Positions 1 to 47,752 are shown, numbered from the stretch's first letter. The stretch is 64,000 nucleotides of DNA from Thermoanaerobaculia bacterium (GCA_035498835.1 DATJZU010000026.1:922-64921); one strand, 5' to 3'. A program made the numbers and translations. The notes: generated from the sequence alone by a model not told the origin.

Positions 1-2
1 GG

Positions 3-464
3 CCCCTCGACAATCCCGGCCTCGAAGCGGAGCTGACGCGCCGGCGGACGCGCTTCGGCAACGGCGTGATCGCCAAGCGCGAGGCGCTGCGCGAGATGCT
101 CCGCGCCATGCGCGAGAACCGGACCGTGGCGATCCTGCTCGATCAGAACGTCATGCCCGACGAGGCGATCTTCGTGCCTTTCTTCGGGCGGCTCGCCGCG
201 ACGACGTCGTCCGTCGCGCTCCTGCAGCGAAAGACCGGCGCGGCGGTCGTGCCCGTCTTCACCTGGCCGGAAGCGGGGGGCGGCTGGCGGCTCGCGTTCG
301 AGACGCCGATCCTTGCGGAGGAGTTCTCGGCGGGCGATCCCGGACGCGCCGAGCACGTGCGGCGCGCGACCGCGCGCTACGCCGAGGTGACCGAGGCCGC
401 GATCCGGAAGGCGCCCGAGGCGTGGCTGTGGTTACACGACCGGTGGAAGACGAGACCGGAGTAG
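3..464 (+). CDS. lpxL: Lipid A biosynthesis acyltransferase (LpxL/HtrB family), 5'-truncated by window edge
   Basis: Frame is open from base 3 (PLDNPGLEAEL...). Contains LLDQ, FVPFFG and the C-terminal PEAWLWLHDRWK motif typical of the family; adjacent to LPS genes. Confidence 0.85.
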   Translation, partial: PLDNPGLEAELTRRRTRFGNGVIAKREALREMLRAMRENRTVAILLDQNVMPDEAIFVPFFGRLAATTSSVALLQRKTGAAVVPVFTWPEAGGGWRLAFETPILAEEFSAGDPGRAEHVRRATARYAEVTEAAIRKAPEAWLWLHDRWKTRPE

Positions 465-544
465 CTATCAGCTATCAGCTATCAGCTGTCAGCCAGAGCG
501 GAAGATGCCGTCTGGCTGAGAGCTGAAAGCTGGCGGCTGACAGC
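464..544. repeat. Heptamer-built palindromic intergenic element, copy 1
   Basis: (GCTATCA)x3 GCTGTCA GCCAGA-13 nt-TCTGGC TGAGAGC TGAAAGC TGGCGGC TGACAGC; fills the gap between convergent stops. Confidence 0.95.
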
Positions 545-547
545 CCG

Positions 548-1129
548 TCACTTGAGCTCCGAGTTCCAATAAGCCACATCCAGAAAGTTCCGCCACGCCG
601 GGTGGAACTTGTTCGCGCCGAAATGGCCGACCGGATGCCAGCGCGGCTTCTTCGGGTGCGCGATGAGCTTCATCGACGCCTCCTGCGGCGTGCGGTTGCC
701 CTTGCGCACGTTGCACGCGAGGCAGGCGCAGACGACGTTCTCCCAGGACGAGTTGCCGCCGCGCGAGAGCGGGATGACGTGATCGAGCGACAGCTCGGCC
801 GACGGGAACTTGTGCCCGCAGTACTGGCAACGGTTCCCGTCGCGCACGTAGATGTTGTGGCGCGAGAACTTCACTTCCTGCCGCGGGAGATGGTCGTAGT
901 CCTTGAGCGCCACGACCCGCGGAATGCGAATCGCCATCGAGGGCGTCAGAACGACTTCGTCCTGAGGCTGCGGCGGAATGTCGCACCAGTTCTCGAACTC
1001 GTAGGTCGAATAGTCCGGCAGCACCGCACGCACGTGGCCCTTGTAGAAGAGCGAGAACGCCTTGCGGACGGACGTGACCTGGACCGCCTGGAAGACGCGA
1101 TTGAGGACGAGGACGTTCGAGTCGAGCAT
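548..1129 (-). CDS. HNH endonuclease (McrA-like, Zn-binding)
   Basis: CQYCG...DHVIPLSRGG..WENVVCACLACNVRKG; N-terminal VLVLN segment typical of the widespread HNH family. Start placed at MLDSN (1129). Confidence 0.9.
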   Translation of the reverse strand: MLDSNVLVLNRVFQAVQVTSVRKAFSLFYKGHVRAVLPDYSTYEFENWCDIPPQPQDEVVLTPSMAIRIPRVVALKDYDHLPRQEVKFSRHNIYVRDGNRCQYCGHKFPSAELSLDHVIPLSRGGNSSWENVVCACLACNVRKGNRTPQEASMKLIAHPKKPRWHPVGHFGANKFHPAWRNFLDVAYWNSELK

Positions 1130-1166
1130 TGGCGTTGCCGTTTGCCGGTCTTGCCGGAGGCCGATC

Positions 1167-1174
1167 ATTATAAT
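1167..1174. promoter_or_regulatory. Overlapping divergent -10 boxes (ATTATAAT)
   Basis: TATAAT on + (1169-1174) and on - (1167-1172), in the 56-bp gap between the HNH and heptose-kinase starts. Confidence 0.55.
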
Positions 1175-1185
1175 CCGCTCATTCC

Positions 1186-2208
1186 ATGGCTTTTGACGTC
1201 CCGCGCGACCGGCTCCTCGGGCTCGTGGCCTCGTTCTCCGGGCGGCGCCTCGCGGTCGCGGGCGATTTCGTCCTCGACCGCTTCGTCTACGGCCATCCCC
1301 GCCGCATCAGCCGCGAGGCCCCGGTCCTCATCCTCCGCTTCGCGCGCGAGGAGAGTCTCCCGGGCGGCGCCGGCAATACTGCCGCCAACGTGCGCTCTCT
1401 CGGCGGCGCGCCGATTCCGGTCGGGGCGATCGGCGCGGACGAAGAGGGCCGGGCGCTCCGGCGGGGCTTCGAGGAACGCGGCATCGCGACCGGCGGCCTC
1501 CTCGAGGTTCCGGGCTACGCGACGCCGTCGAAGACGCGAATCCTCGGCGGCGCGCCGCACGCGATCAAACAGCAGATCGTGCGGTACGACCGCGGCGAGC
1601 CGCTGCCCGCGGATCCCCGGATCGCGGCTGCGCTCGCCCGCAGTCTCGCCGACGCGGCGCGTGGCGCGGCGGGAGCGATCGTGTCCGACTATGCCTACGG
1701 CGCAGTGTCGCCGGCGTCGGTGACGGCGCTGCGCGCGGCGCTGCCCGCCGCCGCGCCGATCCTCGTCGATTCGCGGCATGCCCTCCTCTCCTACCGCGGC
1801 GTGGACGCGGCGACGCCCAACGAGGAAGAGCTCGAAGAGAGTGCCGGCGCCGTGTTCGGGGATTCGGAGGAGGCGCTTTCGCGGGCCGCGGCCGACATGG
1901 CGAAGAAGATCGGATGTCGCACCCTCCTCGTCACCCTCGGCTCCCGCGGGATGGCGCTCTTCAACGGGCCCGGGCCGCCCCGCCGCATCCCGGTGCACGG
2001 GACGGATCAGGTGGCCGACGTCACGGGCGCGGGAGACACCGTGCTGGCGACCTTCTCGCTCGCGCTCGCGTCCGGGGGCACGGCCCTCGAAGCCGCGCTG
2101 CTCGCCAACTTCGCCGGCGGCGTCGTCGTGATGAAGATGGGAACGGCGGTGGTCACGGGGGACGAGCTTCGAGAGGCGATTGCGGCGGACCGGACGATTT
2201 TGGCGTGA
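1186..2208 (+). CDS. hldA: D-glycero-beta-D-manno-heptose-7-phosphate kinase (HldA/RfaE domain I, PfkB family)
   Basis: AGDFVLDRFVYG..RISREAPV, PGGAGNTA, TPNEEE and DVTGAGDTV motifs; no fused nucleotidyltransferase domain. Confidence 0.85.
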   Translation: MAFDVPRDRLLGLVASFSGRRLAVAGDFVLDRFVYGHPRRISREAPVLILRFAREESLPGGAGNTAANVRSLGGAPIPVGAIGADEEGRALRRGFEERGIATGGLLEVPGYATPSKTRILGGAPHAIKQQIVRYDRGEPLPADPRIAAALARSLADAARGAAGAIVSDYAYGAVSPASVTALRAALPAAAPILVDSRHALLSYRGVDAATPNEEELEESAGAVFGDSEEALSRAAADMAKKIGCRTLLVTLGSRGMALFNGPGPPRRIPVHGTDQVADVTGAGDTVLATFSLALASGGTALEAALLANFAGGVVVMKMGTAVVTGDELREAIAADRTILA

Positions 2209-2216
2209 AGAAAAAA

Positions 2217-2299
2217 GCTATCAGCTCTCAGCTATCAGCTGTCAGCCAGACACGACCTTTCGCCTTCTGGCTGAAAGCTGAGAGCTGAAAGCCGACAGC
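2217..2299. repeat. Heptamer-built palindromic element, copy 2
   Basis: GCTATCA GCTCTCA GCTATCA GCTGTCA GCCAGA-15 nt-TCTGGC TGAAAGC TGAGAGC TGAAAGC CGACAGC; abuts the TTG start at 2300. Confidence 0.95.
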
Positions 2300-3265
2300 T
2301 TGAAACTCCTCATCGTCCGCCTCTCCGCCTTCGGCGACATCGTCCACGCGCTCCCGCTCGCCGCGAACGCGCAGCGCGCGGGCGCGACGGTCGGATGGCT
2401 CTGCGAGGCGCGCTACCGGGAGCTGCTCGAAGGGAACCCGAACGTCGATCGCCTCTTCCTCGCCGACACGCGCGGCTGGCGCCGCAAACCGGCGGAGGGC
2501 GGCACGCGCTCCGCGTTCGCGCAGATGCGCCGCGACCTCGCCGCCTTCGGCGCCGACTTCACGATCGACGTGCAGGGACTCTGGAAGTCCGCGATCCTCG
2601 CCCGCGCGGCGCGCGCCCCGGTCGTGGGCTTCGACTCCTCGGAGCGCCGCGAGGGGCTCTCGTCGCTCCTCGCGTCGCGAAAGGTGCGGCCGCCGGATTC
2701 GTCGCGTCACATCGTGGACCGCAACCTCGCGCTCCTCTCGGCGATCGGCATCCCCGTCGTCGAGCCCGCTCCCGACGCGCGCTATCTCCTCGCGGCGCCG
2801 AGCGCCGAGGCCGCCGAGTTCCTTCCGTCGGTCCGGCGCCCCTACGTCCTCTACCATCCGGGCGCGGGCTGGCCCGAGAAGCGGTGGGACCCCGAGAAGC
2901 TCGCTGCCGTCGCGCGCACCCTCGAAGCGCGATGGGGCCTCTCTCCCGTCATTTCCTGGGGACCGGGCGACGAGGCGGTCGTTGCGATCTTCGAAGCCGC
3001 GCTGCCCGGCGCCCGGCGGATCCCGCGGCTCTCGCCTCGCGCCCTCGCGCACGTCGCCGCGGGCGCGGCGCTTTTCGTGGGAAACGACACCGGACCGCTC
3101 CATCTGGCCGACGCCCTCGGCACGCCCACGCTCGCGCTCTTCGGCCCGACCGATCCCGCCCGCAACGGACCCTATCGGGGAGCGTCGTTCAAGTTCGATG
3201 CGTCCACCACGACCGCCGAGGTCGCCCGGAAAGCGGCTGAAATCGTCGCGGTCGACGCGCCCTGA
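2300..3265 (+). CDS. waaC: LPS heptosyltransferase I-like (GT9)
   Basis: LIVRLSAFGDIVHALP, DVQGLWKSA, HPGAGWPEKRW, VGNDTGPLHLA motifs. Confidence 0.85.
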   Translation: MKLLIVRLSAFGDIVHALPLAANAQRAGATVGWLCEARYRELLEGNPNVDRLFLADTRGWRRKPAEGGTRSAFAQMRRDLAAFGADFTIDVQGLWKSAILARAARAPVVGFDSSERREGLSSLLASRKVRPPDSSRHIVDRNLALLSAIGIPVVEPAPDARYLLAAPSAEAAEFLPSVRRPYVLYHPGAGWPEKRWDPEKLAAVARTLEARWGLSPVISWGPGDEAVVAIFEAALPGARRIPRLSPRALAHVAAGAALFVGNDTGPLHLADALGTPTLALFGPTDPARNGPYRGASFKFDASTTTAEVARKAAEIVAVDAP

Positions 3266-3277
3266 TGCGTCCCGCTG

Positions 3278-3306
3278 TTGACTGACGGCGGTCGACGCCT
3301 TACCAT
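3278..3306 (+). promoter_or_regulatory. sigma70-type promoter of pilB
   Basis: TTGACT-N17-TACCAT ending 12 nt before the pilB ATG. Confidence 0.65.
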
Positions 3307-3318
3307 CGTCCAAATCCC

Positions 3319-5151
<1,833 letters not shown>

Positions 5152-5284
5152 GACAGGGATTCCCTCCGTTTGCGGCGAATCGCGCGGCGGAAAGCTGCTT
5201 CGTTTCTGAACAATTCGCCTTCCTTTTTCTCTGCCGTGGGCCTAAACTAGCGGGACACAAATTGTCATAGAGCCTGGGGGACCG

Positions 5285-6445
5285 ATGGCCAGCGATACCA
5301 CGCTCCATCAACTATTGAAACAGATGGTCGAAATGGGGGCGTCCGACCTCCATTTGACGACGCAATCGCCACCCATGGTTCGGCTCGACGGCCGCCTGAT
5401 CCCGCTGCCGTATCCCCCGCTCACGGTCGCCGAGACCAAGCAGCTCGCTTACTCGGTTCTGACCGACACGCAGAAGCATCGCTTCGAGGAAAATCTCGAG
5501 CTCGACCTCTCCTTCGGCGTCAAGGGACTCGCGCGCTTCCGCGGCAACAACTTCCTGCAGCGCGGCGCCGTCGGCGGCGTCTACCGGCAGATCCCGTACG
5601 AGATCCTCGGGTTCCGCGAGCTGGGGCTCCCCCCGGTCGTCGAGAGCCTCTGCGAGAAGCCGCGCGGCCTGATCCTCGTGACCGGGCCGACGGGCTCCGG
5701 CAAGACCACGACGCTCGCGTCGATGATGGACAAGATCAATCGCGAGAAGCAGCTCCACATCATCACGATCGAAGACCCGATCGAGTTCCTCCACACGCAC
5801 AAGAAGTGCCTCGTCAACCAGCGCGAGCTGCACGCCGACACGCATTCGTTCCCCAACGCGCTCAAGTCGGTCCTCCGCGAGGACCCGGACGTCGTGCTCG
5901 TCGGCGAGATGCGCGACCTCGAGACGATCGAGTCGGCCCTGCGCATCGCGGAGACCGGCCACCTCACGCTCGCGACCCTGCACACGAACTCGGCCGTCTC
6001 CTCGATCAACCGCATCATCGACGTCTTCCCGGCGCACCAGCAGACGCAGATTCGCACGCAGCTCTCCTTCGTGCTCGAGGGAATCATGTGTCAGTCGCTG
6101 ATCGAGCGCTCGAGCGGGAAGGGGCGTGCGATGGCGATGGAGATCATGGTGCCCAACGCTGCCATCCGGAACCTCATCCGCGAGGACAAGGTCCACCAGA
6201 TCTACTCCATGATGCAGACCGGCCAGGCCAAGTACGGGATGCAGACCTTCAACCAGTCGCTCGCGACGCTGTACCACAAGAAACAGATCACGCTCGAAAA
6301 CGCGCTTTCGCGCTCGTCCAACGCGGACGAGCTGCAGGACATCATCAACCGGGGCGCCGGAATCAACGCTCCCACGGGACCGTTGACTCCCGCCGCCGCC
6401 GCCGCCGCCGCCCGGAAGGCCGGGGCCGGATCGGCCGGTTCGTAA
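5285..6445 (+). CDS. pilT: Type IV pilus retraction ATPase PilT
   Basis: GPTGSGKTTT, LREDPDVVLVGEMRD, GHLTLATLHTNS and the PilT-specific AIRNLIRE motif. Confidence 0.95.
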   Translation: MASDTTLHQLLKQMVEMGASDLHLTTQSPPMVRLDGRLIPLPYPPLTVAETKQLAYSVLTDTQKHRFEENLELDLSFGVKGLARFRGNNFLQRGAVGGVYRQIPYEILGFRELGLPPVVESLCEKPRGLILVTGPTGSGKTTTLASMMDKINREKQLHIITIEDPIEFLHTHKKCLVNQRELHADTHSFPNALKSVLREDPDVVLVGEMRDLETIESALRIAETGHLTLATLHTNSAVSSINRIIDVFPAHQQTQIRTQLSFVLEGIMCQSLIERSSGKGRAMAMEIMVPNAAIRNLIREDKVHQIYSMMQTGQAKYGMQTFNQSLATLYHKKQITLENALSRSSNADELQDIINRGAGINAPTGPLTPAAAAAAARKAGAGSAGS

Positions 6446-6460
6446 CGGGGGACACGCGCC

Positions 6461-7663
6461 ATGCCCAACTACGCCTGGAAGGGGCGCAACCGCGCCGGGA
6501 TGGTCCAGGAGGGCGTCCTCGCCGCCGACACGAAGGACGTCGCGCTCGCGACGCTGCGGCGCCAGAACATCGTCGTCACCGGCATCCGCGAGCGCGGCAA
6601 GGAGATCTCGCTCAGCAAGATGGGCCGCAGGGTCCCGCCGAAGGTGCTCGCGGTCTTCACGCGGCAGTTCTCCGTCATGATCGACGCCGGTCTCCCCCTC
6701 GTGCAGTGCCTCGAGATTCTTGCGAATCAGCAGGAGCACAAGAACTTCCAGAAGATCCTCCTGCAGGTGCGCCAGGACGTCGAGGCCGGCTCGACGCTCG
6801 CCGACGCGATGCGCCGTCATCCCAAGGCGTTCGACAACCTCTACGTGAACATGATCGCCGCCGGCGAGGCGGGCGGTATTCTCGACGTCATCCTGCAGCG
6901 CCTCTCGACCTACATCGAGAAGGCGGTCAAGCTGCGCAACCAGGTCCGCGCGGCGCTGATCTATCCCGTCGCCGTCATCGTGATCGCCGCGATCGTCGTC
7001 GCGGTCATCCTGCTGAAGGTCATCCCGACTTTCGCCGCCCTCTTCACGAGCCTCGGGGCGGAGCTGCCGCTGCCGACCCGCGTCGTCATCTTCTGTTCCA
7101 ACTTCCTCGCCCGCTACTGGTGGGCGTTCGTGGCGCTGATCGCCGCGGCCGTTTTCGCGTTCCGGCGCTACTACGCGACCTACAAGGGCCGCCGCGTCGT
7201 GGACGGGGCAATGCTCAAGGCGCCGATCATCGGCATGATCCTGCGAAAGATCGCCGTCGCCCGGTTCTGCCGAACGCTCGCGACACTGACCTCGTCGGGC
7301 GTCCCGATCCTCGAGGCCCTCGACATCACGGCGCGCACGTCGGGCAACGCGATCGTCGAGGATGCGATCATCGGCGTCCGGAAGAGCGTCGAGGGCGGCA
7401 AGACGATCGTCGAGCCCCTCCGGGAATCGGGCGTCTTCCCGAACATGGTCGTGCAGATGATCGGCGTCGGCGAACAGACCGGCGCGCTCGATGCAATGCT
7501 CAACAAGATCGCCGAGTTCTACGAGGACGAGGTGGACGTGGCGGTCGCCGGCCTCGTGAAGCTGCTCGAGCCGCTCATGATCTTCATCCTCGGCGTCGTC
7601 ATCGGTGGCATCGTCATCGCCATGTACCTGCCGATGTTCACGCTGATCAACAAGATCGGATAA
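6461..7663 (+). CDS. pilC: Type IV pilus platform protein PilC (T2SS F family)
   Basis: FTRQFSVMIDAGLPL, AGEAGGILD, GEQTGALD, LLEPLM..., MYLPMF. Confidence 0.95.
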   Translation: MPNYAWKGRNRAGMVQEGVLAADTKDVALATLRRQNIVVTGIRERGKEISLSKMGRRVPPKVLAVFTRQFSVMIDAGLPLVQCLEILANQQEHKNFQKILLQVRQDVEAGSTLADAMRRHPKAFDNLYVNMIAAGEAGGILDVILQRLSTYIEKAVKLRNQVRAALIYPVAVIVIAAIVVAVILLKVIPTFAALFTSLGAELPLPTRVVIFCSNFLARYWWAFVALIAAAVFAFRRYYATYKGRRVVDGAMLKAPIIGMILRKIAVARFCRTLATLTSSGVPILEALDITARTSGNAIVEDAIIGVRKSVEGGKTIVEPLRESGVFPNMVVQMIGVGEQTGALDAMLNKIAEFYEDEVDVAVAGLVKLLEPLMIFILGVVIGGIVIAMYLPMFTLINKIG

Positions 7664-7670
7664 GGGTAGA

Positions 7671-7736
7671 GTTATCAGTCTTCAGTTGTCAGTTATCAGT
7701 TCCGGAACTGATAACTGATGACTGATCACTGACGAC
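7671..7736. repeat. Heptamer-built palindromic element, variant copy 3 (GTTATCA units)
   Basis: GTTATCA GTCTTCA GTTGTCA GTTATCA GTTCCGGAAC TGATAAC TGATGAC TGATCAC TGACGAC. Confidence 0.9.
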
Positions 7737-7751
7737 TTCAAGGCGTCCGGT

Positions 7752-9454
7752 ATGGACAACTCCCTCAAACGATCCGTCGGGTGGCTGACGGCGGCGCGCA
7801 TCGTCGTTCTGCTGCTGATCCTTCTGTCCGCGATCCTCGTCCAGGCGACTCCCGGAGTGCAGTTCGACCGGCAGGCTTTGCGGGACCATGGGCCGGCGCG
7901 GGACGAGCTCTCGTTCCTCTACCTGCTCAACGGCGCGGCGGTCCTCCTCGCTCTTTTCCACTGGACGCTCGGCCGGCACCTGCCGGCGCGGCTCGAGGCG
8001 GGGATCCAGCTGCTGGGCGACCTCGCGATCGTCACGACGCTCGTTTACGCTTCGGGAGGCCCGGACTCCGTCTTCAACTTCCTCTACCTCGTCGTCATCG
8101 GCGTTTCGGCGTTCCTGCTCTACCGCACGGGCGCCGTCTTCATCGCGTCGGTGGCCGCGGTGCTCTACGGATCGGTCGTGCAGCTGCTCGCCTACGGCAT
8201 CCTGCCGCCGCCGCCGCTCGCGCCGGTGTCCGACTGGGGCGGCACGCGCATCCGCTACAACCTGGCGATCACGGTCGCCGGCTTCTACGGGATCGCGTTC
8301 ATGGTCTCGTACCTCTCGGAGAAGCTGCGCGCGGCGCGCGACGAGCTCGACCTCCGGCAGAAGGCCCTCCAGCGTCTCCAGCATCTCCACGGCAACGTCA
8401 TCGCGACGATGTCGTCCGGCCTCATGACGGCCGACGCGCAGCAGCGCGTGACGTTCCTCAACCGCGCCGGCGGGGAGCTGCTCGGCGTCGATCCGGGGCG
8501 CGCGCCGGGACACCTCCTCGCCGACGTCGGATTCCGTTTTGGCGAGGACTGGGACCGCATCCGGGAGCGCGCGCGCGGACCGGAGACCTACCGCGACGAG
8601 ATCGAGATCGCCCGCGGCAACGAGCGGCGGATGCTCGGCTACTCGTTCCGCCTGCTCAAGGACACGGAAGGCGAGGAAGGCGCGCTGCTCCTCTTCCAGG
8701 ACCTCACGGACCTGAAGAAGCTCGAGCGCCAGGCCCGGTTCCACGCGCAGCTCGCGGCGGTCGGCGAGCTCGCGGCGGGCATCGCCCACGAGATCCGGAA
8801 CCCGCTCGCCTCGATCTCGGGATCCGTGCAGGTCCTCTCGAAGGAGATCCCTGCCGGCTCCGCGGAGCGGCGGCTCATGGAGATCATCGTCTCGGAATCG
8901 AACCGCCTGTCGAAGATCCTCGAGGAGTTCCTCCGCTTCGTGCGGCCGCAGGAGCGCCGGGTCGCGGAGTTCGACGTGGCGCGCACGATCATCGAGGTGA
9001 TGGACCTCTTCCGCCTCTCCGACGAAGTGTCCGACGCGCACCGCATCGAGGCGGACGTCGTGCCGGAGCACTCGATGATCGAGGGAGACCGCGATCAGTT
9101 GCGCCAGATTCTCTACAACATTGCCAAGAATGCCGTCCACGCGATGTCCGCGGGCGGAACGCTCCGGGTCGTCGGCCGCGAGGAGGATGCCTGGTATCGC
9201 ATCCGATTTGCCGACACCGGGCGCGGGATGAGCGAAGAGGAGCTGTCGCGCCTCTTCACGCCTTTCTCGACGGCATTCGACGGAGGAACGGGGCTCGGCA
9301 TGGCCATTGTCCGGAAGATCGTGGAAGACCATGGAGGCGCGATCGACGCGGAGTCGCGACCGGGCGAGGGGACGGCGGTCACCGTCCTCCTCCCCCGCTC
9401 CGCCCGTCGCCGGTCCGACGGCGCGCGGCGCGAGCACGTCGCGGCGGGGGTGGC

Positions 9455-9458
<4 letters not shown>
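7752..9458 (+). CDS. pilS: PilS-like membrane sensor histidine kinase with PAS-like domain
   Basis: Multiple N-terminal TM helices, AHEIRNPL H-box, N-box NIAKNA, DTGRG, GTGLG; follows pilC. Confidence 0.85.
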
Positions 9459-10887
<1,429 letters not shown>

Positions 10888-10891
<4 letters not shown>

Positions 10892-11370
10892 GGTCCGGCT
10901 CGGGCCTCCTGGCAGCCGGTCTCGTCTTTCTCGCGGCCTGCGGCGCCGCGCCGAGCGCCTCGCCGACGCCGGCGGCGGCTCCGACTCCCGCCGCGGGCCC
11001 GCGCGTCATCATGCCGTCCGGCGCCGTCTACACGGTCGAGGTCGCGCGCACGCCGGAGGACCAGGCTCAAGGGCTCATGTATCGCGAGAGCCTGCCGCCG
11101 CGCGCCGGGATGATCTTCCTCTTCACCGACGGCGGCGCGCACAACTTCTGGATGAAGAACACGATGATCCCGCTCGACATCATCTGGATCGACGCCGGCG
11201 GCAAAGTCGTCTTCGTCTCGGCCGACACGCCGCCCTGCAAGTCCGACCCGTGCCCGAACTACGGTCCAAAGACTCCGGCACCGACCGTCCTCGAGATCGC
11301 GGGCGGGATGGCCGCGAAGGAAGGGATCGTCGCCGGCGCGACGATCCAGGTCGCCGACGTCGGCCGCTGA
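10888..11370 (+). CDS. DUF192-family protein, probable lipoprotein
   Basis: Lipobox-like FLAAC; GLMYRESL...GMIF...FWMKNTMIPLDIIWID...VLEI signature. Confidence 0.8.
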
Positions 11371-11373
11371 CGA

Positions 11374-11449
11374 GCTATCAGCTATCAGCTATCAGCCGGA
11401 TGGCTCGAGTCGGACTCTGGCTGACAGCTGACAGCTGACAGCTGACAGC
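11374..11449. repeat. Heptamer-built palindromic element, copy 4
   Basis: (GCTATCA)x3 GCCGGA-15 nt-TCTGGC (TGACAGC)x4, between convergent genes. Confidence 0.95.
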
Positions 11450-11456
11450 TAATTCC

Positions 11457-13244
11457 TCACGGCTCGAAGAGGTAGAGCCCGTCGCCCGCCGTCCCGATGT
11501 AGACCCGTCCGCCCGCGGCCGACGCGGCGGTCGCGAGAGCCAGACCCGCGCGCGGGCTCGTCAGCGCAAGACGGCGGTTGCCCTCCTCCCACACGAGCTG
11601 CCCGTCCACGTCCTCGAGGCGGCTCCAGGCGCCGGCGGACGAGGCCGCGTTAGCTTCCGCGGCGAAGAGGCCGCCCGAGAGGACCGCGCGCTTGCGCTGC
11701 GTCCACCAGCGGCCGTCCCATCGGTAGTCCGTGTCGGACGTCTTGACCTCGAGCACCGGCGCGCGAGCGGCGCCCGCGACGAGCTCCGCCGCAATCGCGC
11801 CCGTCGGCGACCCGCGGATGGCCTCGAACGTCGCGCCGCCGTCGGCGGTACGGAAGACGCCTTCGGACGTCACAAGCACCGGCTGGCGATAGGGCGGACC
11901 GAAGACCGCGACCGGCGATCCCGCCGGCGCCGCGGCCGCGGCCGTCCAGCGCGCGCCGCCGTCGCGCGAGAGCTTCAGTCCCGCCGACGACGCGAGGAGG
12001 AGCACCGTCTTTCCCGCCGGATCGCGGAACGCCGTGAGCGAACCCGCCGGCGGCAGCGGGTCGACCGAGACCCGGCGCACCGACGTGCCCTCGGCCGCCC
12101 AGACGCCGCTTTCCTCGCCGCCGTACGCTCGGAAGAAGTAGACGCGCGACGGATCGTTCGGATCGGCCACGAGATCGGCCACGCGCCCCTCGGCCAGGCC
12201 GCTCGAGGCGGCGGCGAGCGTCGTCCCGGCATCGTCCGACGTGAAGACGCCCTCGCCCTCCGTGCCGACGAAGAGGCGGCCGCTGCGGGGATCCACGGCG
12301 AGCGCCGTCACGACGAGCGATTCGCGCGAGATGCGCTGCCAGGATTTCCCGCCGTCGATCGAGCGATGGAGGCCGCCGACCGTCGCCGCGTAGATCGTTC
12401 CGGGCCGCGTCGGGTCGCGCCGCACCGCTTGCGAGCGCCGGTTGGTGAAGCCCTGCGTGAAGCGCGTCCAGCGGTCGCCGCCGTCGTCGGAGTGATAGAC
12501 CCAGCCGCAGGTCGACACCCAGACGTCCCGGGGATCGTTCGCCGCGAAGTCCCAGGAGTACACCGTCGCGTCGAGCACCATGCCGTCGGCGATGCGCACC
12601 CACGTCGCGCCGCCGTCCTTCGTGCGGAAGGCCTGGCGCCACGTGCCGGCGTAGAGCGTCTGCGGATCCTTCGGGTCGAAGGCGAGCGACTCGACCTGCC
12701 GCAGTCCGTCGGTGTCGCCGCCGGTCGGCGTCCAGGTCCGGCCGCCGTCGCGGGAGAGCCGCACGCCGTCGTCGCCGCCGATCGCGAGCACCGGCCGAGG
12801 ACCGGGCGAGAGCGCGAGCGCCCGCGTCGCGACGGAGTGCTGCCACCGCGCGAGCGTCGTCCAGGTCGCGCCGTGGTCCGAGCTGACCGCGACGAGGCCG
12901 CCCTCGTACGGTCCCGCCAGCGCGGCCCAGAGCCGGCCGGGAGCCGACGGATCGGCCACGAGCCCCGTCGCGACGAAGCCGAGGAAAGCCGGGCCCGGCG
13001 CGAGCGGCTTCCAGGTCGCGCCGCCGTCCGTCGAGCCGTAGAGGTTGCCGCGGGACGTGCCGAGATAGACGCGCCCGGCGTCGAACGGGTCCACGGCGAA
13101 GGCGCGCACCTCCGCGCCCCAGAGCGGCAGGCGGAGCCAGCGCGCCGCGGAGGCGATGCCGGGAAGGCACGTCGCGAGCGCGGCAGCGCACAAGAGGGCG
13201 CGCCGGCGCGGAGACCGCGGCCGTTTCGTTCCGCCGTTGGACAT
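11457..13244 (-). CDS. Exported BNR/Asp-box repeat beta-propeller protein
   Basis: Signal peptide followed by about nine S/T-x-D-x-G-x-T/S-W Asp-boxes (STDGGATW, SSDHGATW, SRDGGRTW, TKDGGATW, SIDGGKSW...). Start at 13244 chosen from an upstream TACAAT box. Confidence 0.75.
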   Translation of the reverse strand: MSNGGTKRPRSPRRRALLCAAALATCLPGIASAARWLRLPLWGAEVRAFAVDPFDAGRVYLGTSRGNLYGSTDGGATWKPLAPGPAFLGFVATGLVADPSAPGRLWAALAGPYEGGLVAVSSDHGATWTTLARWQHSVATRALALSPGPRPVLAIGGDDGVRLSRDGGRTWTPTGGDTDGLRQVESLAFDPKDPQTLYAGTWRQAFRTKDGGATWVRIADGMVLDATVYSWDFAANDPRDVWVSTCGWVYHSDDGGDRWTRFTQGFTNRRSQAVRRDPTRPGTIYAATVGGLHRSIDGGKSWQRISRESLVVTALAVDPRSGRLFVGTEGEGVFTSDDAGTTLAAASSGLAEGRVADLVADPNDPSRVYFFRAYGGEESGVWAAEGTSVRRVSVDPLPPAGSLTAFRDPAGKTVLLLASSAGLKLSRDGGARWTAAAAAPAGSPVAVFGPPYRQPVLVTSEGVFRTADGGATFEAIRGSPTGAIAAELVAGAARAPVLEVKTSDTDYRWDGRWWTQRKRAVLSGGLFAAEANAASSAGAWSRLEDVDGQLVWEEGNRRLALTSPRAGLALATAASAAGGRVYIGTAGDGLYLFEP

Positions 13245-13311
13245 GGACGGCACCATTGTAGCGTCCGGCCGGGTCGAACGGTGCCGTCGGGCCTTCGGCT
13301 ACTATCTGGCG

Positions 13312-14178
13312 ATGCCGAAGATCCGCGTCGCGGTGTTCCCGGCCGCTGGCCTGGGAACGCGATTCCTCCCGGCCACCAAGGCGCAGCCCAAGGAGATGCT
13401 GCCGCTCGTCGACCGGCCGCTCGTGCAGTACGTCGTCGAGGAGGCGCGCCGCGCCGGCCTCGAGCGCATCGTGATCGTGACCGGCCGCGGCAAGAACGCG
13501 ATCGAGGACCACTTCGACACGTCCTTCGAGCTCGAAGCGATGCTCGAGGAGCGCGGGAAGGCGGATCTGCTCGAGGAAGTGCGGGCGATCTCCGACCTGA
13601 TCCCCGTCTCCTACGTCCGGCAAAAGAGCGCGCTCGGACTCGGACACGCCGTGCTCCAGGCGAAGGATCTCGTCGGGAACGAGCCGTTCGCCGTGATGCT
13701 CGGCGACGACATCGTGGACGCCGACGAGCCGTGCATCGGGCAGATGCTGCGGCTCTACGAGCGCCGCGGCAATCCGGTGATCGCGCTCCAGGAAGTCCCG
13801 CGCTCGGAGACGCGGCAGTACGGGATCGTGGCAGGAAAGAAGATCGAGGACCGCGTCGTCGCGATCGAGGACATGGTCGAGAAGCCGTCGCCGGACAAGG
13901 CGCCGTCGAACCTGGCGATCATCGGGCGGTATCTGCTGCCGCCGGAGATCTTCCAGATCCTCGAGGAGACGCACTCCGACGTGGGCGGCGAAATCCAGTT
14001 GACGTCCGCGCTCAAGACGTTGCTCGCGCGGCGGCCGATCGACGGCTATCTGTTCGAGGGCAAGCGCTACGACGCGGGCGACAAGCTCGGGTTCCTGAAG
14101 GCGACCGTCGAGTTCGCTCTGAAGCGGAAGGACCTGGGCGCGCCGTTTCGGGGTTATCTGAAGGGGCTGAAGCTGTAG
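13312..14178 (+). CDS. galU: UTP-glucose-1-phosphate uridylyltransferase
   Basis: AVFPAAGLGTRFLPATKAQPKEMLP, VEKP, YDAGDKLGFLKA; start at MPKIR. Confidence 0.95.
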   Translation: MPKIRVAVFPAAGLGTRFLPATKAQPKEMLPLVDRPLVQYVVEEARRAGLERIVIVTGRGKNAIEDHFDTSFELEAMLEERGKADLLEEVRAISDLIPVSYVRQKSALGLGHAVLQAKDLVGNEPFAVMLGDDIVDADEPCIGQMLRLYERRGNPVIALQEVPRSETRQYGIVAGKKIEDRVVAIEDMVEKPSPDKAPSNLAIIGRYLLPPEIFQILEETHSDVGGEIQLTSALKTLLARRPIDGYLFEGKRYDAGDKLGFLKATVEFALKRKDLGAPFRGYLKGLKL

Positions 14179-14200
14179 TCCGCTCCACGGCGCCCCGCCC

Positions 14201-14225
14201 GGGCGGCCGCGAGGGCCGCCCCTAC
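14201..14225 (-). repeat. Single GTAG-type REP palindrome
   Basis: Reverse complement reads GTAGGGGCGGCCCTCGCGGCCGCCC, nearly identical to a unit at 47673. Confidence 0.75.
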
Positions 14226-14545
14226 TCCTTCGCCGCCTTCTTCTCCTTCTTTTCCTTCTTCTCGACCTTCTCGGATTTCCCGGCGGACTCGGACTTGGTC
14301 TCGCTCTTCGATTCGCTCTTCGATTCGGTCTTCGACTCGCTCTTGCCGCCGCCGCCCTCGCCGCTCGCGCGCGCGTAGTCGGTGATGTAGAACCCGCTCC
14401 CCTTGAACTGGATGGCGGGCGCGGAGATCGCCTTCTTCAGTTTCCCGCCACAATGCGGGCAGACTCTCAGCGGCCGCTCGCCGATCCGCTGGATGACCTC
14501 GGTCTTCTTGCGGCATTTCTCGCAGAGGTACTCGTAGATGGGCAT
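14222..14545 (-). CDS. FmdB-family zinc-ribbon protein with Lys/Ser/Glu-rich tail
   Basis: MPIYEYLCEKC...CPHCGG...FKGSGFYITDY. Confidence 0.9.
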   Translation of the reverse strand: MPIYEYLCEKCRKKTEVIQRIGERPLRVCPHCGGKLKKAISAPAIQFKGSGFYITDYARASGEGGGGKSESKTESKSESKSETKSESAGKSEKVEKKEKKEKKAAKE

Positions 14546-14553
14546 GGAAATAA

Positions 14554-14617
14554 GCTATCAGCTATCAGCTTTCGGCTCTCCGCTCTGGCTGAAAGCTGAG
14601 AGCTGAGGGCTGATAGC
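14554..14617. repeat. Heptamer-built palindromic element, copy 5
   Basis: GCTATCA GCTATCA GCTTTCG GCTCTC-CGC-TCTGGC TGAAAGC TGAGAGC TGAGGGC TGATAGC. Confidence 0.9.
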
Positions 14618-15378
14618 TATGCCAGGCTTCCCCCACCCGTGTTGTACCGGATCTTCTTCGCGCCGGGCGGAGTGGCCGCGCTCTTGCGCAGAAGACCGAG
14701 ACAGAAGAACGCGTACAGGAGGCGCGCGTTGTCCGCCGCGGCGCCCGGGCCCTTGCCGCACAGCGGCTGGAGCGCCGTCTTCCCGTCCACACGGTCGTAG
14801 TACGCGCGTTCCTCCGGGGCGAAGAGCGACAGGAGATCGCCCGGTGTGCGCTCGAGCAGCGTCGTGGCCTGCCCGAGCCGCTGGACGAGCCGGCGCGGGT
14901 CGGCCGACCGCCGGATCCCTTCGACGATGACTTCCGGAATCGAGAGATCGATGCGGATGACCTCGTCCGACCGCCGCTCGCCGATGTCGAAGACGACTTC
15001 TCCCGAATCCCAGTCGAAGGCGCCCCAGAGGATCTCGCGGATCTGGCCCGACACGGCGTCGCGCAGGCCGTCCTCGTCGAGGACTCCCATCTCGAGCAGG
15101 ATCTGCCCGAGACGCACGCCCTGCCGAACCTGCCGCGCCGCTTCGCGGGCGACGTCGGCCGCCAGGATCCGCCGCCGCAGCAAATACGCGCCGAGGCTCG
15201 CTTCGCGCTCGTTGGTCGCGGCGAAGACGACGAGCCCGTCGTCGATGTAGACGAGCCGCTGCCGCGCCTCCCGCGAGACGCGGACGACGCCGGGAACCCG
15301 GTAGCGATGGATCGTGGCCAGGATCTCGGCGAGCGGAGTCACCGCGAGGTCGCCGCGGTACTCGAAGCGCTTTTCCAT
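14617..15378 (-). CDS. DUF4388 (PATAN-like) domain protein
   Basis: YRGDLAVTPLAEILATI...G...IYxxxGxVVFA, RLGQILLEMG, WDSGEVVF pattern. Confidence 0.75.
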   Translation of the reverse strand: MEKRFEYRGDLAVTPLAEILATIHRYRVPGVVRVSREARQRLVYIDDGLVVFAATNEREASLGAYLLRRRILAADVAREAARQVRQGVRLGQILLEMGVLDEDGLRDAVSGQIREILWGAFDWDSGEVVFDIGERRSDEVIRIDLSIPEVIVEGIRRSADPRRLVQRLGQATTLLERTPGDLLSLFAPEERAYYDRVDGKTALQPLCGKGPGAAADNARLLYAFFCLGLLRKSAATPPGAKKIRYNTGGGSLA

Positions 15379-15460
15379 TCTCGGCTTGGGATCATGGTAG
15401 CGCGGCCGGGCGGCGCGCGGTAGGGGATTCCGGGCGCCGGGACCGTAGAATCGGGCGGCA

Positions 15461-16666
15461 ATGATGACGGTCGCCGAAGCCCTCGCCGCGATCGGCCGCC
15501 TGACGCCCCTCGGAACGGAGGAGATTCCGCTCGCCGAGGCGTCGGAGCGCGTGCTCGCCCGCGCGGTTCGCGCCGACGTCGACTGGCCGCCGTTCGAGAC
15601 CTCGGCGATGGACGGTTACGCCGTGCGGCTCGAGGACGTGCGCGCGCCCGGGACGACGCTCGCCGAGCGCGAGGGACTCGTCGCGGCCGGCGACGCGCCT
15701 CCCCCGCCGATCCGGCCCGGACAGGCCGTTCGCGTCATGACCGGCGCCGCGATGCCGGAGAACGCCGAGGCCGTCGTCCCGGTCGAGCAGGTGCGCCGCG
15801 AAGCCGGGCGCGTCCGGCTGGAGGTCGTCCCGGCTGCCGGCGCGCATCTGCGCCGGCGCGGCGAAAGCATCGCGGCCGGCACCGAGCTGCTGGCCGCCGG
15901 CCGGCGCCTCGCGGCGAGCGACATCGCCCTCGCGGCGATGGCCGGCGCCGATCCCGTGGCGGTCTTCCGGCGGCCGAGGATCGCGATCGCGGCCACCGGC
16001 AACGAGCTCGTCCCCGCCGGCGAGACGCCGAGGGCCGGGCAGCTGCGCGACTCGAACGGCCCCATGCTCGCGGCGCTCTGCCGCGAGCGAGGATGGCCCG
16101 CGGCGGCGCGTCCGCGCGTGGCGGACGACCACGCCGGCGTGGCCCGGCTCTTCGCCGAAGCGGGGGCGCACGAGGACATCCTCATGACGTCCGGCGGCGT
16201 CTCGGCGGGCGACCTCGACCTGCTGCCTCCCGCGGCGCAGAAGGCCGGCTTCGAGCTGCTCTTCCACGGCGTCGCCATGCGTCCGGCAAAACCCGTCGCC
16301 GTCGCGCGCCGCGGCGCGACGATCTGGATCGGGTTGCCGGGCAATCCCGTGTCCACGTCGGTCGGCTTCCACCTCTTCGCCCGCGAGATCGCGGGCCGCC
16401 TCGAGGGCGACGCGCGCCCCGGAGCCCCGCGCGTCACGGCGAAGCTCGCGGCGCCGATCGGAGCGGCCGGCGCGCGGGAGTCCTACCGCGACGCGGTCTG
16501 GGAAACCTCCCACGGCGAGAGCCGCGTGACGGAATTGCGCTCGGCCGGCAGCCACGACATCGGCGCGCATGCGCGCGCAAACGCCCTGATCGTCCAGCCC
16601 GCCGGATCCGGCGCGCTGCCGGCGGGCGCGGTCGTCACGTGCCTCCTCACCCGGGACCTCCCGTGA
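15461..16666 (+). CDS. moeA: Molybdopterin molybdotransferase MoeA
   Basis: PPFETSAMDGYA, VMTGAAMP, ATGNEL, DSNGPML, SGGVSAGDLD, GLPGNPVS. Confidence 0.9.
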   Translation: MMTVAEALAAIGRLTPLGTEEIPLAEASERVLARAVRADVDWPPFETSAMDGYAVRLEDVRAPGTTLAEREGLVAAGDAPPPPIRPGQAVRVMTGAAMPENAEAVVPVEQVRREAGRVRLEVVPAAGAHLRRRGESIAAGTELLAAGRRLAASDIALAAMAGADPVAVFRRPRIAIAATGNELVPAGETPRAGQLRDSNGPMLAALCRERGWPAAARPRVADDHAGVARLFAEAGAHEDILMTSGGVSAGDLDLLPPAAQKAGFELLFHGVAMRPAKPVAVARRGATIWIGLPGNPVSTSVGFHLFAREIAGRLEGDARPGAPRVTAKLAAPIGAAGARESYRDAVWETSHGESRVTELRSAGSHDIGAHARANALIVQPAGSGALPAGAVVTCLLTRDLP

Positions 16667-17451
16667 GACGCAGCGCCGCCGCGGATCACGCGACTCCTGT
16701 AGCCGACCACCGGGAGACGTGCTCGGCCGACGGCGTCGCGATTGCCTACACGCTCTGGCGGCGGCCGTCGAAGCAGCTCATCGTCCTCGCGCCGGGCTTC
16801 TGGCGCGTGCGCCTCGCGCGCGAGAACCTCTTCCTCGCGACGTTCTTCGTGCGCCGCGGCTACGACGTCGCCGCCCTCGACTTCCGCGGACACGGCGACA
16901 GCGCCGGCGCGTACACCTTCGGAACGTTCGAGCCGAACGACCTGAAGGCGGTCCTCGACGAGCTCGTGGGGGCCGGCCGGCCCTACGATGAGTTCGCGCT
17001 GCTCGGCCTGTCGCTCGGAGGCACGATCGCGGCCGAGGCCCTGTCGCGCTGGCCCGAGCTTCCCTGCCGCGGGCTCGTGATGGTCTCGTCCCCGGCCGAC
17101 CTGCGCGCCATCCGCCCGAAGCCCTGGAAGTCCGGCGCGGTCCGGCAGGTGCGCCTGCGCCACGCGCTGCGGCCCCCGCGCGTTTCGCGCCACACGCGCC
17201 TGTCCGCGACGCCGCGCGGCCACGAGGCCATCGCGAACCTCGCCATGCCGAAGCTGATCGTGACGGCGGAGGGCGACTGGCTGGTCGATCCGTCGCATGG
17301 ACGGCGCCTCGCGCGCGCCGCGGCCCCGCCGGTGGACGACGTGCACCTGAACCTGCCGGGGTCGCTGCACGCCGACGGACTCGTCAAGTTCCGGCCGCTG
17401 CGCTTGCTGCGCCTGCTGGACCGGTGGTTCCTTCGGAACGCCCCGCCGTAG
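16663..17451 (+). CDS. Alpha/beta hydrolase
   Basis: GTGA coupling to moeA; DFRGHGDS and GLSLG nucleophile elbow. Confidence 0.8.
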   Translation: MRRSAAADHATPVADHRETCSADGVAIAYTLWRRPSKQLIVLAPGFWRVRLARENLFLATFFVRRGYDVAALDFRGHGDSAGAYTFGTFEPNDLKAVLDELVGAGRPYDEFALLGLSLGGTIAAEALSRWPELPCRGLVMVSSPADLRAIRPKPWKSGAVRQVRLRHALRPPRVSRHTRLSATPRGHEAIANLAMPKLIVTAEGDWLVDPSHGRRLARAAAPPVDDVHLNLPGSLHADGLVKFRPLRLLRLLDRWFLRNAPP

Positions 17452-17453
17452 GA

Positions 17454-17534
17454 GCTAGCAGCGATCAGCTGTCAGCTGTCAGCCGGAGTCTGCGATTCCG
17501 TCTGGCTGAAAGCTGAGAGCTGAAAGCTGACGGC
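17454..17534. repeat. Heptamer-built palindromic element, copy 6
   Basis: GCTAGCA GCGATCA GCTGTCA GCTGTCA GCCGGA-13 nt-TCTGGC TGAAAGC TGAGAGC TGAAAGC TGACGGC. Confidence 0.95.
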
Positions 17535-18277
17535 TAGAAGTTCAACGCCCCTTCCGGCGTGAAGAACTTGTCGTCGATCTTTGCCGAGCGATAGTCGAGA
17601 TATTCGAGCCGCGTGACGGTCCGAGGCTGGTTCGTCAGGAGGTCGCGCACCTCCATGGCGGCGACGAAGGTCTGGCCGCCGGACTTCCGGAATTTCAGAA
17701 ACGTGACGTCCTTGGCCTGCTTGCCCGACGGCAGCGAGAAGAGAAGCCGGCACGGCAGCCGCGCCGCCTCGTCGAACCAGAGCACGACCTTGCTGTAGGG
17801 CGCCTTGTCCGACTTCGCCGTCAGATCCACGACGCGGCAGGGCTTGCCGCCGACGGTCTCCGTTCCGGGCCGCGCGACGCCCGCGTAGTCCTTCGCGAAC
17901 TCGATGCGCGCCACGTCGCCCACCGAGGCGCCGCCGAGAAGCCGCTGGTTCGGCGTGATCGGCAGGGCCCGCGACGCGCCGGGCACCATCAGCCACATCT
18001 TCTCGCCGACGTTCAGGATCTTGCGGCCGTCGTTCTTGCCGCCGCGAAACACGATGAGCCCCTTGTCGTCCCCTTTCGTGTAAATCTCGAAGTCCGCGCT
18101 GCCCGTGACCTTGCCGTCCGTGACCTGGCTCGCGCGCGCGGTGATGACGGCCTCGGAGAAGGCGTTGCGCGCCCGATCCACGTCCACGAGCCAGGACGCG
18201 ATCTGGTCCGGTGTTTGCGCGGGCGCCGCGCCGGCCAGAAGGACAAGAAGGACGGCGAACCTCCGGACCCTACACAT
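17534..18277 (-). CDS. LolA-like 'outer membrane lipoprotein-sorting' periplasmic protein
   Basis: Signal peptide; G.K.L..G..MW...PG.SR.L.I...QRLLGGAS.GD pattern; last gene of the ABC operon. Confidence 0.7.
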   Translation of the reverse strand: MCRVRRFAVLLVLLAGAAPAQTPDQIASWLVDVDRARNAFSEAVITARASQVTDGKVTGSADFEIYTKGDDKGLIVFRGGKNDGRKILNVGEKMWLMVPGASRALPITPNQRLLGGASVGDVARIEFAKDYAGVARPGTETVGGKPCRVVDLTAKSDKAPYSKVVLWFDEAARLPCRLLFSLPSGKQAKDVTFLKFRKSGGQTFVAAMEVRDLLTNQPRTVTRLEYLDYRSAKIDDKFFTPEGALNF

Positions 18278-47532: not shown

Positions 47533-47752
47533 GGGCGGGGACAAGCCCCGCCCCTACTCCCTATCGCATCGTAGGGGGCGGCCCTTGCGGCCGTCCGCCG
47601 AATCGCCGATCACGCCGACATCGTAGGGACGACCCTTGCAGCCGCCCGCCGAATCGCCGACCCGCCTCCATCGTAGGGGGCGGCCCTCGCGGCCGCCCGC
47701 CGAATCGCCGACCACGCCACCATCGAAGGGGCGGCCCTTGGGGCCGCCCGCG
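47533..47752. repeat. GTAG-type REP cluster: one inverted REP plus four tandem 50-52-bp units
   Basis: GGGCGGGGACAAGCCCCGCCCCTAC, then CATCGTAGGGGGCGGCCCTTGCGGCCG(T/C)CCGCCGAATCGCCGA-type units at 47567, 47619, 47669 and 47721. Confidence 0.85.

Follow-up and report, generated by a model that had tools for sequence, protein, structure and literature searches.

Inverted heptamer-array repeats in intergenic gaps of a Thermoanaerobaculia bacterium and their possible REPIN-like nature

The six elements treated here, palindromic arrays of 7-nt units in a 64,000-nt stretch of DNA from a Thermoanaerobaculia bacterium (GCA_035498835.1 DATJZU010000026.1:922-64921; the whole stretch is called the window below), recall several repeats already described in bacteria. 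Doublets of REPs (repetitive extragenic palindromes) that form hairpins, termed REPINs, are mobilised by REP-associated tyrosine transposases (RAYTs; Bertels & Rainey 2011, PMC3116915), and one end of each REP arm, an imperfect palindrome of 20-40 bp, is tagged with GTAG or CGTC (PMC3733652). Tandem repeats of heptanucleotides have stood out as odd in bacteria since 1990 (the short tandemly repeated repetitive, or STRR, sequences), without an accepted origin or function according to the heptamer literature. Seven nucleotides is an over-represented tandem-repeat period in bacteria in the accounts of Mazel 1990 and Mrazek 2007 given by PMC4679880 and PMC4692102, both of which also report a slippage hypothesis for heptamers. 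TAACTGA repeats are found in Beggiatoaceae, Cyanobacteria and Bacteroidetes, in sets of which 169 are direct and 1 is indirect (MacGregor 2015, PMC4679880), while the GGGAATC repeats of Xanthomonas (Rehm 2015) occasionally form inverted pairs between convergent genes (PMC4692102).

We found that the elements represent a discrete repeat family, whose arm of about 35 nt is a conserved module under sequence-specific constraint in many labelled phyla. Its arms lengthen and shorten by 7 or 14 nt, and the family is present or absent among relatives and carried on phage DNA. As to the nature of the six copies, the reading we favour, at a probability of roughly 45%, is that of a non-autonomous, REPIN-like selfish repeat, resized by slippage, carried horizontally and tolerated through the looping-out of its hairpin. 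In its favour are occurrence far above chance and in many labelled phyla, inward polarity, a discrete design, intergenic placement, slippage, stable hairpins, turnover among relatives, pairing kept in orthologous hairpins, arrays matched by complementary arrays, copies in phage contigs, array words in cDNA contigs and in a named organism, and an architecture comparable to that of REPINs. The copies are listed below, with limits that include the terminal AGCT boxes.

463-545: copy 1, CTGANAG/TCTGG family; left arm 463-497 (AGCTATC three times, AGCTGTC, AGCCAGA), loop 498-510, right arm 511-545 (TCTGGCT, GAGAGCT, GAAAGCT, GGCGGCT, GACAGCC); between convergent lpxL-like and HNH genes, a TAG stop at 462-464 overlapping the first AGCT
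2216-2300: copy 2, CTGANAG/TCTGG family; left arm 2216-2250, loop 2251-2265, right arm 2266-2300; preceded by the stop of a PfkB-type kinase gene (2206-2208) and followed by the TTG start of a GT9 heptosyltransferase gene at 2300, the first T of which is the last base of the element
7670-7737: copy 3, sister family; NNACTGA units, two of them exact TAACTGA, with the core GTTCC/GGAAC and no loop; PilC stop at 7661-7663, PilS start at 7752
11373-11450: copy 4, CTGANAG/TCTGG family; left arm 11373-11400 (three units and AGCCGGA), loop 11401-11415 (including GAGTCGG), right arm 11416-11450 (TCTGGCT and GACAGCT four times); between convergent DUF192 and BNR genes
14553-14618: copy 5, CTGANAG/TCTGG family, with a degenerate left core; the TAG stop of a DUF4388 gene (minus strand) overlaps the right terminus, and an FmdB zinc-ribbon gene (minus strand) starts 8 nt from the left one
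17453-17535: copy 6, CTGANAG/TCTGG family; left arm 17453-17487, loop 17488-17500, right arm 17501-17535; located where hydrolase and LolA-like genes converge, with the right terminus overlapped by the LolA-like gene's TAG stop

A preliminary description of the window had placed six palindromic heptamer arrays at these sites; all were confirmed and their exact limits re-measured. They are palindromes of 65-85 bp built of tandem heptamers, and five of them are the five top-ranked inverted repeats of the window. The arm core TCTGGCTGANAGCTGANAGCTG (20 bases, up to 3 mismatches allowed) matches 9 arms belonging to five copies, where 100 shuffles give an expectation of 0.00. The search pattern proposed in that description returned the six elements and nothing else in the 64 kb, and its statement that the remaining 46 kb hold none was upheld by pattern, Tandem Repeats Finder (TRF) and inverted-repeat searches. 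Elements occupy 6 of the 12 gaps in the first 18 kb and 0 of about 27 later ones of at least 35 nt (P about 3e-4). This clustering is real, since the rest of the window has a similar base composition and those ~27 gaps are empty.

Judged by unit and core, copies 1, 2, 4, 5 and 6 are one family and copy 3 is a member of a sister family. A core of the form GCC(A/G)GA-N-TCTGGC had been called usual, and CC(A/G)GA...TCTGG is indeed found in copies 1, 2, 4 and 6, but not in copies 5 and 3. The latter had been taken for a compensated variant of the others; it belongs instead to a different family, with its own GGAAC core and the unit CTGATAA, a rotation of the published TAACTGA from which the remaining copy 3 units are 1-2 bases off.

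A gene map based on GC3 and annotated with Pfam bore out that the copies occupy intergenic gaps (71-163 nt each), abut stops or starts and lie in convergent as well as tandem contexts. Three junctions are convergent (lpxL-like/HNH, DUF192/BNR and hydrolase/LolA-like) and three co-directional (PfkB/GT9, PilC/PilS and DUF4388/FmdB zinc-ribbon). Stop codons overlap the element ends or sit 0-7 nt away, and at the three co-directional junctions start codons follow 0-15 nt past the element or its forward arm.

The anatomy of the arm became clear across loci. Scanning a species-representative genome collection for the 20-base core matched at least 118 stretches, and 242 arrays were collected from the window and 118 other loci (cited by L numbers where needed). 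Read outward from the centre on either strand, the arm consists of TCTGG, then CTGA-N-AG units, then CT; in the other register it is TCTGGCT followed by about four GANAGCT units and an AGCT end, and elements begin and finish with AGCT. Invariance within the unit is ~97% at positions 1-4 and 7; the sixth base is A in 75%, and the fifth is free. Arms with four units account for 88 of 134, and a terminal CT comes directly after the final unit in 120/134 and 108/134 arms. Pairs with their cores inward number 67, as opposed to about 2 outward, beside about 70 solo arms. Partner arms were not required by the search, and they have the same CTGANAG unit and CCAGA core; moreover, both arms show the same outward-reading unit spectrum. 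As each unit includes a TGA and 7 shares no factor with 3, an arm has stops in all three frames when read outward and is open inward. Loops range from 6 to 149 nt and are mutually unrelated, even between copies of one genome, in agreement with the earlier remark that every copy in the window has a different spacer. At the loci listed, elements never lie within genes, the median gap to the preceding stop being 4 nt and that to the following start 9 nt. The junction types around them match background proportions, and half of the arms point at gene 3' ends instead of starts.

Set against known systems, the elements combine traits of several. As in REPINs, an inverted doublet of two conserved arms with a less conserved spacer, extragenic and non-autonomous, is predicted to fold as a long hairpin (PMC3116915), and further likenesses are the lack of target duplication, singlets beside doublets, local clustering and compensatory change in the stem. 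Unlike in REPINs, the arms are tandem 7-nt arrays devoid of a GTAG or CGTC tag (GTAG occurs by accident at copy 1 only); the spacer varies in length and, at one site, consists of ancestral DNA. In addition, REPIN-RAYT systems are lineage-specific and vertical, whereas the arm described here is common to metagenome-assembled genomes (MAGs) of about ten labelled phyla and to phage contigs. MITEs, or miniature inverted-repeat transposable elements, are similarly small, non-coding and numerous and share the terminal inverted repeats; they differ by their target duplication, conserved interior and parent insertion sequence, none of which was found for the elements described here, and the latter are sharply defined at the inner end too. 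The earlier view of a non-autonomous family resembling REPs or MITEs is thus retained for the dispersed repeat and given up for the MITE, there being no target-site duplication, no conservation of loops and, in one case, an ancestral loop.

The tandem 7-nt intergenic unit (TRF period 7) is the trait of heptanucleotide repeats, the long simple sequence repeats (LSSRs) and STRRs. As in STRRs, heptanucleotide simple sequence repeats and GGGAATC, the elements are intergenic and vary at a given junction from one related species to the next, in sequence as well as in length. Those repeats are, however, described as lineage-specific and simple, with no defined termini, conserved inner unit or cross-phylum identity. 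The likeness to STRRs, which had been limited to unit size, was undersold, since a position close to start codons, three-frame stops and cross-phylum spread are known for TAACTGA (PMC4679880). TAACTGA repeats likewise have an intergenic 7-nt unit built around CTGA, are open in the reverse direction and spread patchily with no known vehicle (PMC4679880); two units of copy 3 match theirs exactly. They stop a few nucleotides before starts (PMC4679880), a position that forward arms take at the co-directional junctions here, as members of inverted pairs. The family described here differs from them by its inverted pairs, TCTGG inner unit, mode of 4 units, seventh base G and new host phyla, and the five main-family copies share only CTGA-N-A with the TAACTGA unit. 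Foldback transposons (Galileo, FB), which are eukaryotic, kilobase-scale and transposase-dependent, also have long inverted arms of short tandem repeats. The likeness is one of design only: inverted arms built of repeats and a variable or absent middle.

Among the matches listed, the core occurs in MAGs labelled as about ten phyla, at loci with a GC content of 33-72%. The labels comprise Acidobacteriota, Planctomycetota, Chloroflexota, Acidimicrobiia, Bacteroidota and Desulfobacterota, as well as Gammaproteobacteria, Omnitrophota, Methylomirabilota and Binatia, and several matches, including some in Acidobacteriota, Planctomycetota and Chloroflexota, lie on contigs of 0.1-3.4 Mb. The core was also found in five IMG/VR contigs. 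Two of these, with 2-3 copies each, encode a portal protein and a head-protease protein and can therefore be assigned to phage or prophage, the arms lying in head modules. BLAST searches of plasmid and phage collections gave no match, although the low-complexity filter may mask such a query. Array words, of a generic kind only, are present in cDNA contigs of sludge metatranscriptomes, and pure array words in runs of named organisms, at high multiplicity in one of them.

That all genome matches listed are MAGs and that de Bruijn unitigs break at the elements might suggest an assembly or sequencing artefact, such as adapter-like or chimeric metagenome repeats. This explanation is effectively refuted: an independent strain contig (L001), 98.5% identical, has copies 1 and 2 at identical places, which excludes an artefact, and unitigs from other runs bridge copies 2, 5 and 6. 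Furthermore, elements are found inside multi-megabase long-read contigs, always exactly between open reading frames (ORFs), and the array words in runs of named organisms argue in the same direction. No alleles differing by 7 nt or by presence and absence were seen in the source population among Logan contigs, the unitigs of which break at repeats.

Two arrangements at other loci deserve mention. A Blastocatellia MAG (L085, L092, L107) has tandem paralogous ORFs of ~800 aa with one CTGANAG element between each, a TAA stop overlapping the AGCT terminus on one side and a GGAGG...ATG start on the other. The flanks shared in this MAG are accounted for by the tandem paralogous genes. An Acidimicrobiia MAG (L005 ~4550-4850; also L003) has tandem composite repeats of ~93 nt, made of a (GCAGYAA)n array, a conserved linker and TCTGG(CTGANAG)n arms, in which the partner is non-complementary.

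The free position of the unit is informative about how arms change. Identity at N between adjacent units is 0.351, compared with 0.274+-0.015 in shuffles, and reaches 0.438 at distance 2. This likeness of neighbouring units above chance points to slippage by 7 and 14 nt, as had been supposed for the expansion of the arms. The variation in unit number noted before is likewise real in steps of 7 and 14 nt, but it is not free-running, given the predominance of four units. Covariation at the free fifth base between arms is absent (60 of 259 Watson-Crick pairs against 68.9 expected).

Such a pattern, with six of seven positions conserved regardless of pairing, N free and not covarying and an equal unit spectrum on both arms, would suit an array bound by protein as double-stranded DNA (an operator, a centromere-like site or a nucleoid-organising site) with the heptamer as the binding unit. 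The dyad arrangement, the fixed polarity and the lack of a sense-strand bias fit as well, and ribbon-helix-helix repressors do bind heptad arrays (omega repressor of pSM19035). We nevertheless regard this explanation as very improbable. The sites are flanked by housekeeping genes of unrelated kinds, their junction types follow background proportions, and no candidate regulator recurs nearby. Moreover, a 7-bp spacing puts successive units on different helix faces, and the several unrelated heptamer families of a single genome would demand several proteins.

Turnover was evident at orthologous junctions. A metagenome scan with PilC yielded 80 syntenic loci (PilC identity 63-91%), in which CTGANAG arrays are almost never present at the orthologous junctions. 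Close relatives (86-91% PilC) carry at the same junctions palindromes of the same design made of unrelated heptamers (GTGAGAC, GATTTTG, AGTTNTT, ACGTGAA, GTCGAGA, CGTGAAC, TCATTGG), and one palindrome has period 8. One genome can hold several unrelated heptamer families, while sister pairs of relatives carry one common family. Arrays in this locus set tend to be matched by complementary ones, the median being 0.75 and that of a control 0.55, for no fewer than 10 unrelated units. At PilC/PilS a stop-to-start palindrome is found in the window and in all eight close relatives, between conserved flanking coding sequences, and a comparably stable structure in only 7/58 more distant relatives. At the position of copy 4 (DUF192/BNR), L125 has a bare 33-nt spacer. 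As relatives have unrelated heptamers at the same junctions and one has none, both presence or absence and rapid turnover are established.

A second palindromic family, the long hairpin GGGGTCAGGTC...GACCTGACCCC, lies at PilC/PilS in L126 (1311-1410) and L127 (3310-3405) and at PilB/PilT in L129 (~8030-8130), with arms that finish exactly at the next start codon. The orthologous hairpins of L126 and L127 have kept perfect arms of 29 and 28 bp through four mirrored differences, with no G-T pairs. The covariation foreseen in the preliminary description is therefore seen in this orthologous pair and not at the fifth base of the main family. Further copies, presence or absence among relatives and change that preserves pairing, the lack of which had been named as grounds to abandon the proposal of a mobile family, were all found.

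In two of the relatives (L134 3269-3912 and L128 5299-5822) an extra, cytidylyltransferase-like gene of ~0.5 kb stands between the PfkB-type kinase and GT9 genes, and in L134 palindromes of the ACGTNAA heptamer, alike in their centres, enclose it on either side. We also considered genes between successive elements as mobile cassettes; this was rejected, since synteny is kept in relatives without these arms.

The main rival explanation arises from these junctions, namely an origin in situ without mobility, in which a lineage bias to 7-nt tandem duplication produces by-products that turn over rapidly. Small intergenic hairpins would grow outward by slippage of one arm, followed by template-switch (quasi-palindrome) copying to the other arm. 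In loci chosen by PilC homology alone, period 7 dominates, with 45 strong tandem arrays where periods 6 and 8 have 6-8, and with 58 different units. Junctions that hold an unrelated heptamer in each relative, and an ancestral centre at DUF192/BNR, would follow naturally from such a process, and the perfectly symmetrical arms of L126 and L127, which lack G-T pairs, suggest symmetrisation at the DNA level. The slippage hypothesis for heptamers cited above (PMC4679880, PMC4692102) points the same way. Despite this, we consider an in-situ origin a serious but unlikely explanation. It cannot account for the identical unit, TCTGG inner unit and AGCT terminus at five window sites and in some ten phyla, nor would it lead one to expect so sharp a mode of 4 units. 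Template switching would also make N complementary between arms, which it is not.

At the RNA level, predicted folding energies of the six window copies lie between -35 and -64 kcal/mol on either strand, with z from -4 to -11; copy 1, for example, gives -56.8 kcal/mol on the plus and -56.1 on the minus strand. With permissive filters, Rfam returned only look-alikes of miRNA hairpins (23-38 bits against cut-offs of 60-88), and no sigma-70 promoters were found inside the arms. The genes that start 0-15 nt downstream of three elements do not suit a terminator. Of the words that make up the window or a peat MAG locus, no more than 7-9% are present in RNA runs.

In the REPIN-like reading, the arms would be copied or maintained by a putative sequence-specific process acting in trans, and may be transferred between lineages on mobile DNA such as phages. 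An inserted pair would be transcribed with its neighbours and fold as a stem of 30-35 bp, mismatched once every 7 nt. With the insert looped out by this stem, the upstream stop and the downstream start would lie within about 13 nt of one another, and an insert inside an operon would do little harm because stop and start are joined in this way. The hairpin may secondarily protect mRNA 3' ends or act as a processing site. We regard the elements as selfish or near-neutral passengers and not as a dedicated regulator.

A regulatory alternative would see in the arrays a single-stranded RNA signal that tunes translation initiation or hairpin melting. MacGregor proposed for TAACTGA that either the ribosome or an OB-fold protein of the Csp or S1 type, whose footprint is ~7 nt, binds start-adjacent arrays (PMC4679880). 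Outward arms end a median of 9 nt before downstream starts and so cover the ribosome-binding region, TAACTGA behaves alike and has a TGA in three frames (PMC4679880), copy 3 uses that unit, and CTGA is the commonest 4-mer among intergenic period-7 units (8/39). The lead of CTGA over other 4-mers is narrow, however, half of the arms face gene 3' ends, the hairpins would sequester the sites and no binding protein is known. We therefore judge a signal of this kind quite improbable.

Several results weigh against the REPIN-like reading itself. There is no target-site duplication (k = 1-7, 45 elements with clean termini, no excess over permutation). Copies of one genome are not clonal, N-pattern identity being 0.315 within and 0.279 between genomes, and loops are no more alike within genomes (0.297) than between them (0.299). 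GAGTCGG is common to the loop of copy 4, the bare spacer of L125 and the loop of L128, which belongs to a different heptamer family (4/20,000 shuffles); the centre at DUF192/BNR is therefore ancestral, and the arms were added around it, so that this element was not inserted as one piece. The absent target duplication, the unrelated loops, the barely shared N patterns and this ancestral centre together argue against insertion of a whole palindrome. Most solo arms (50/63) lack a decayed partner, although 13/63 have one compared with 0 in the control, and the unit numbers of the two arms of a pair are nearly independent. No transposase, RAYT or integrase is encoded in the 64-kb window. The 123 loci show no recurrent neighbouring protein family other than housekeeping ones, and no gene enclosed by arms, as an autonomous element would have, was found. 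The elements are not canonical Rho-independent terminators (a G+C-rich stem-loop followed by a T run), none of the 13 terminator-like sites in 1-19000 coinciding with one, and in the six window copies the sense strand is not consistently more stable, nor is there a G-U advantage. Finally, the phylum labels are those of the record titles given by MAG depositors, and short contigs may be mis-binned. The missing target duplication, transposase and enclosed gene are also what an in-situ origin would lead one to expect. It remains that arm pairs are far too frequent for independent hits; inverted repeats do not extend into the flanks, and no RAYT was seen near elements at the 123 loci.

The search for genes enclosed by larger copies had been suggested as a way to a mobilising protein, and it found none. 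The related claim that the window lacks a cognate nuclease or transposase holds for the transposase, while an HNH gene does lie near copy 1. It is a stand-alone gene (548-1168, minus strand, 206 aa) 3 nt from the element, with a generic HNH domain whose likeness to IscB and Cas9 is at the domain level only and far under the family cut-offs. We rejected it as a cognate nuclease, since it is a conserved core gene, syntenic between the lpxL-like and rfaE-like genes in all relatives, including those with other repeat families or none.

The arm-by-arm picture leaves room for a bolder idea, which we consider clearly unlikely: the arm of ~35 nt would be an ultra-small mobile or enzymatically 'written' module, served by a putative sequence-specific enzyme widespread among the bacteria of soil, sediment and water and among their phages. 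This enzyme would set TCTGG(CTGANAG)4CT arms at gene boundaries, usually inverted around existing spacer DNA. Candidates would be a single-strand transposase of the HUH/Y1 type that leaves no target duplication, or a templated repeat-adding polymerase in which the fifth template position is unread. If true, this would represent a new class of bacterial repeat-generating system and show by what mechanism heptanucleotide repeats (STRR, TAACTGA) came to be in excess, which has long gone unexplained.

In the searchable literature, the CTGANAG/TCTGG family of inverted pairs with fixed termini appears to be undescribed, as does its breadth. Searches for the literal repeat strings found no paper, keyword searches returned only related papers on heptamers and REPs, and a 2024 survey of MITEs does not mention heptamers, tandem repeats or hairpins. 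A searchable family is now defined by a fixed arm, fixed termini and a free fifth base, in very distant phyla and borne by phages; an arm nearly unchanged across labelled phyla and phage DNA is unusual for a tiny non-coding element. Together with a clade in which one intergenic junction bears a different heptamer hairpin in each relative, this makes it possible to test what reads or writes the 7-nt unit, whether the arm or the pair replicates, and by which route the family crosses phyla. Little is known of the signals for transcript ends in Acidobacteriota and Planctomycetota, and the elements may bear on how operons are expressed there. From a practical point of view, they break short-read assemblies and could serve as strain markers.

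Some further features were noted in the window and its relatives. Its gene content, with a CarboxypepD_reg-type outer-membrane receptor and DUF4388, and the carriers of similar GC would tentatively point to Acidobacteriota. Over window 1-6346 the strain contig L001 matches at 98.5% identity; past this point the two diverge abruptly, with only 56% identity in PilC and 35% in PilS (L001 13029-15295). On sequence, this looks like an allelic replacement inside the type IV pilus locus that begins within pilT. Just upstream of pilT, a motif GGCGTAAACT-N2-TGC-N-ACACAA-N-AATCGGGGG is present in the window (~5235-5285) and at PilB/PilT of L127, L128, L129 and L131; this conserved motif is probably a promoter or operator. 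Lastly, two adjacent and near-identical G+C-rich hairpins, GGGCGGCCC...GGGCCGCCC, occupy the gap between the amidase and MgtE genes (47678-47749), and this is an ordinary terminator-like structure, unlike the heptamer elements.

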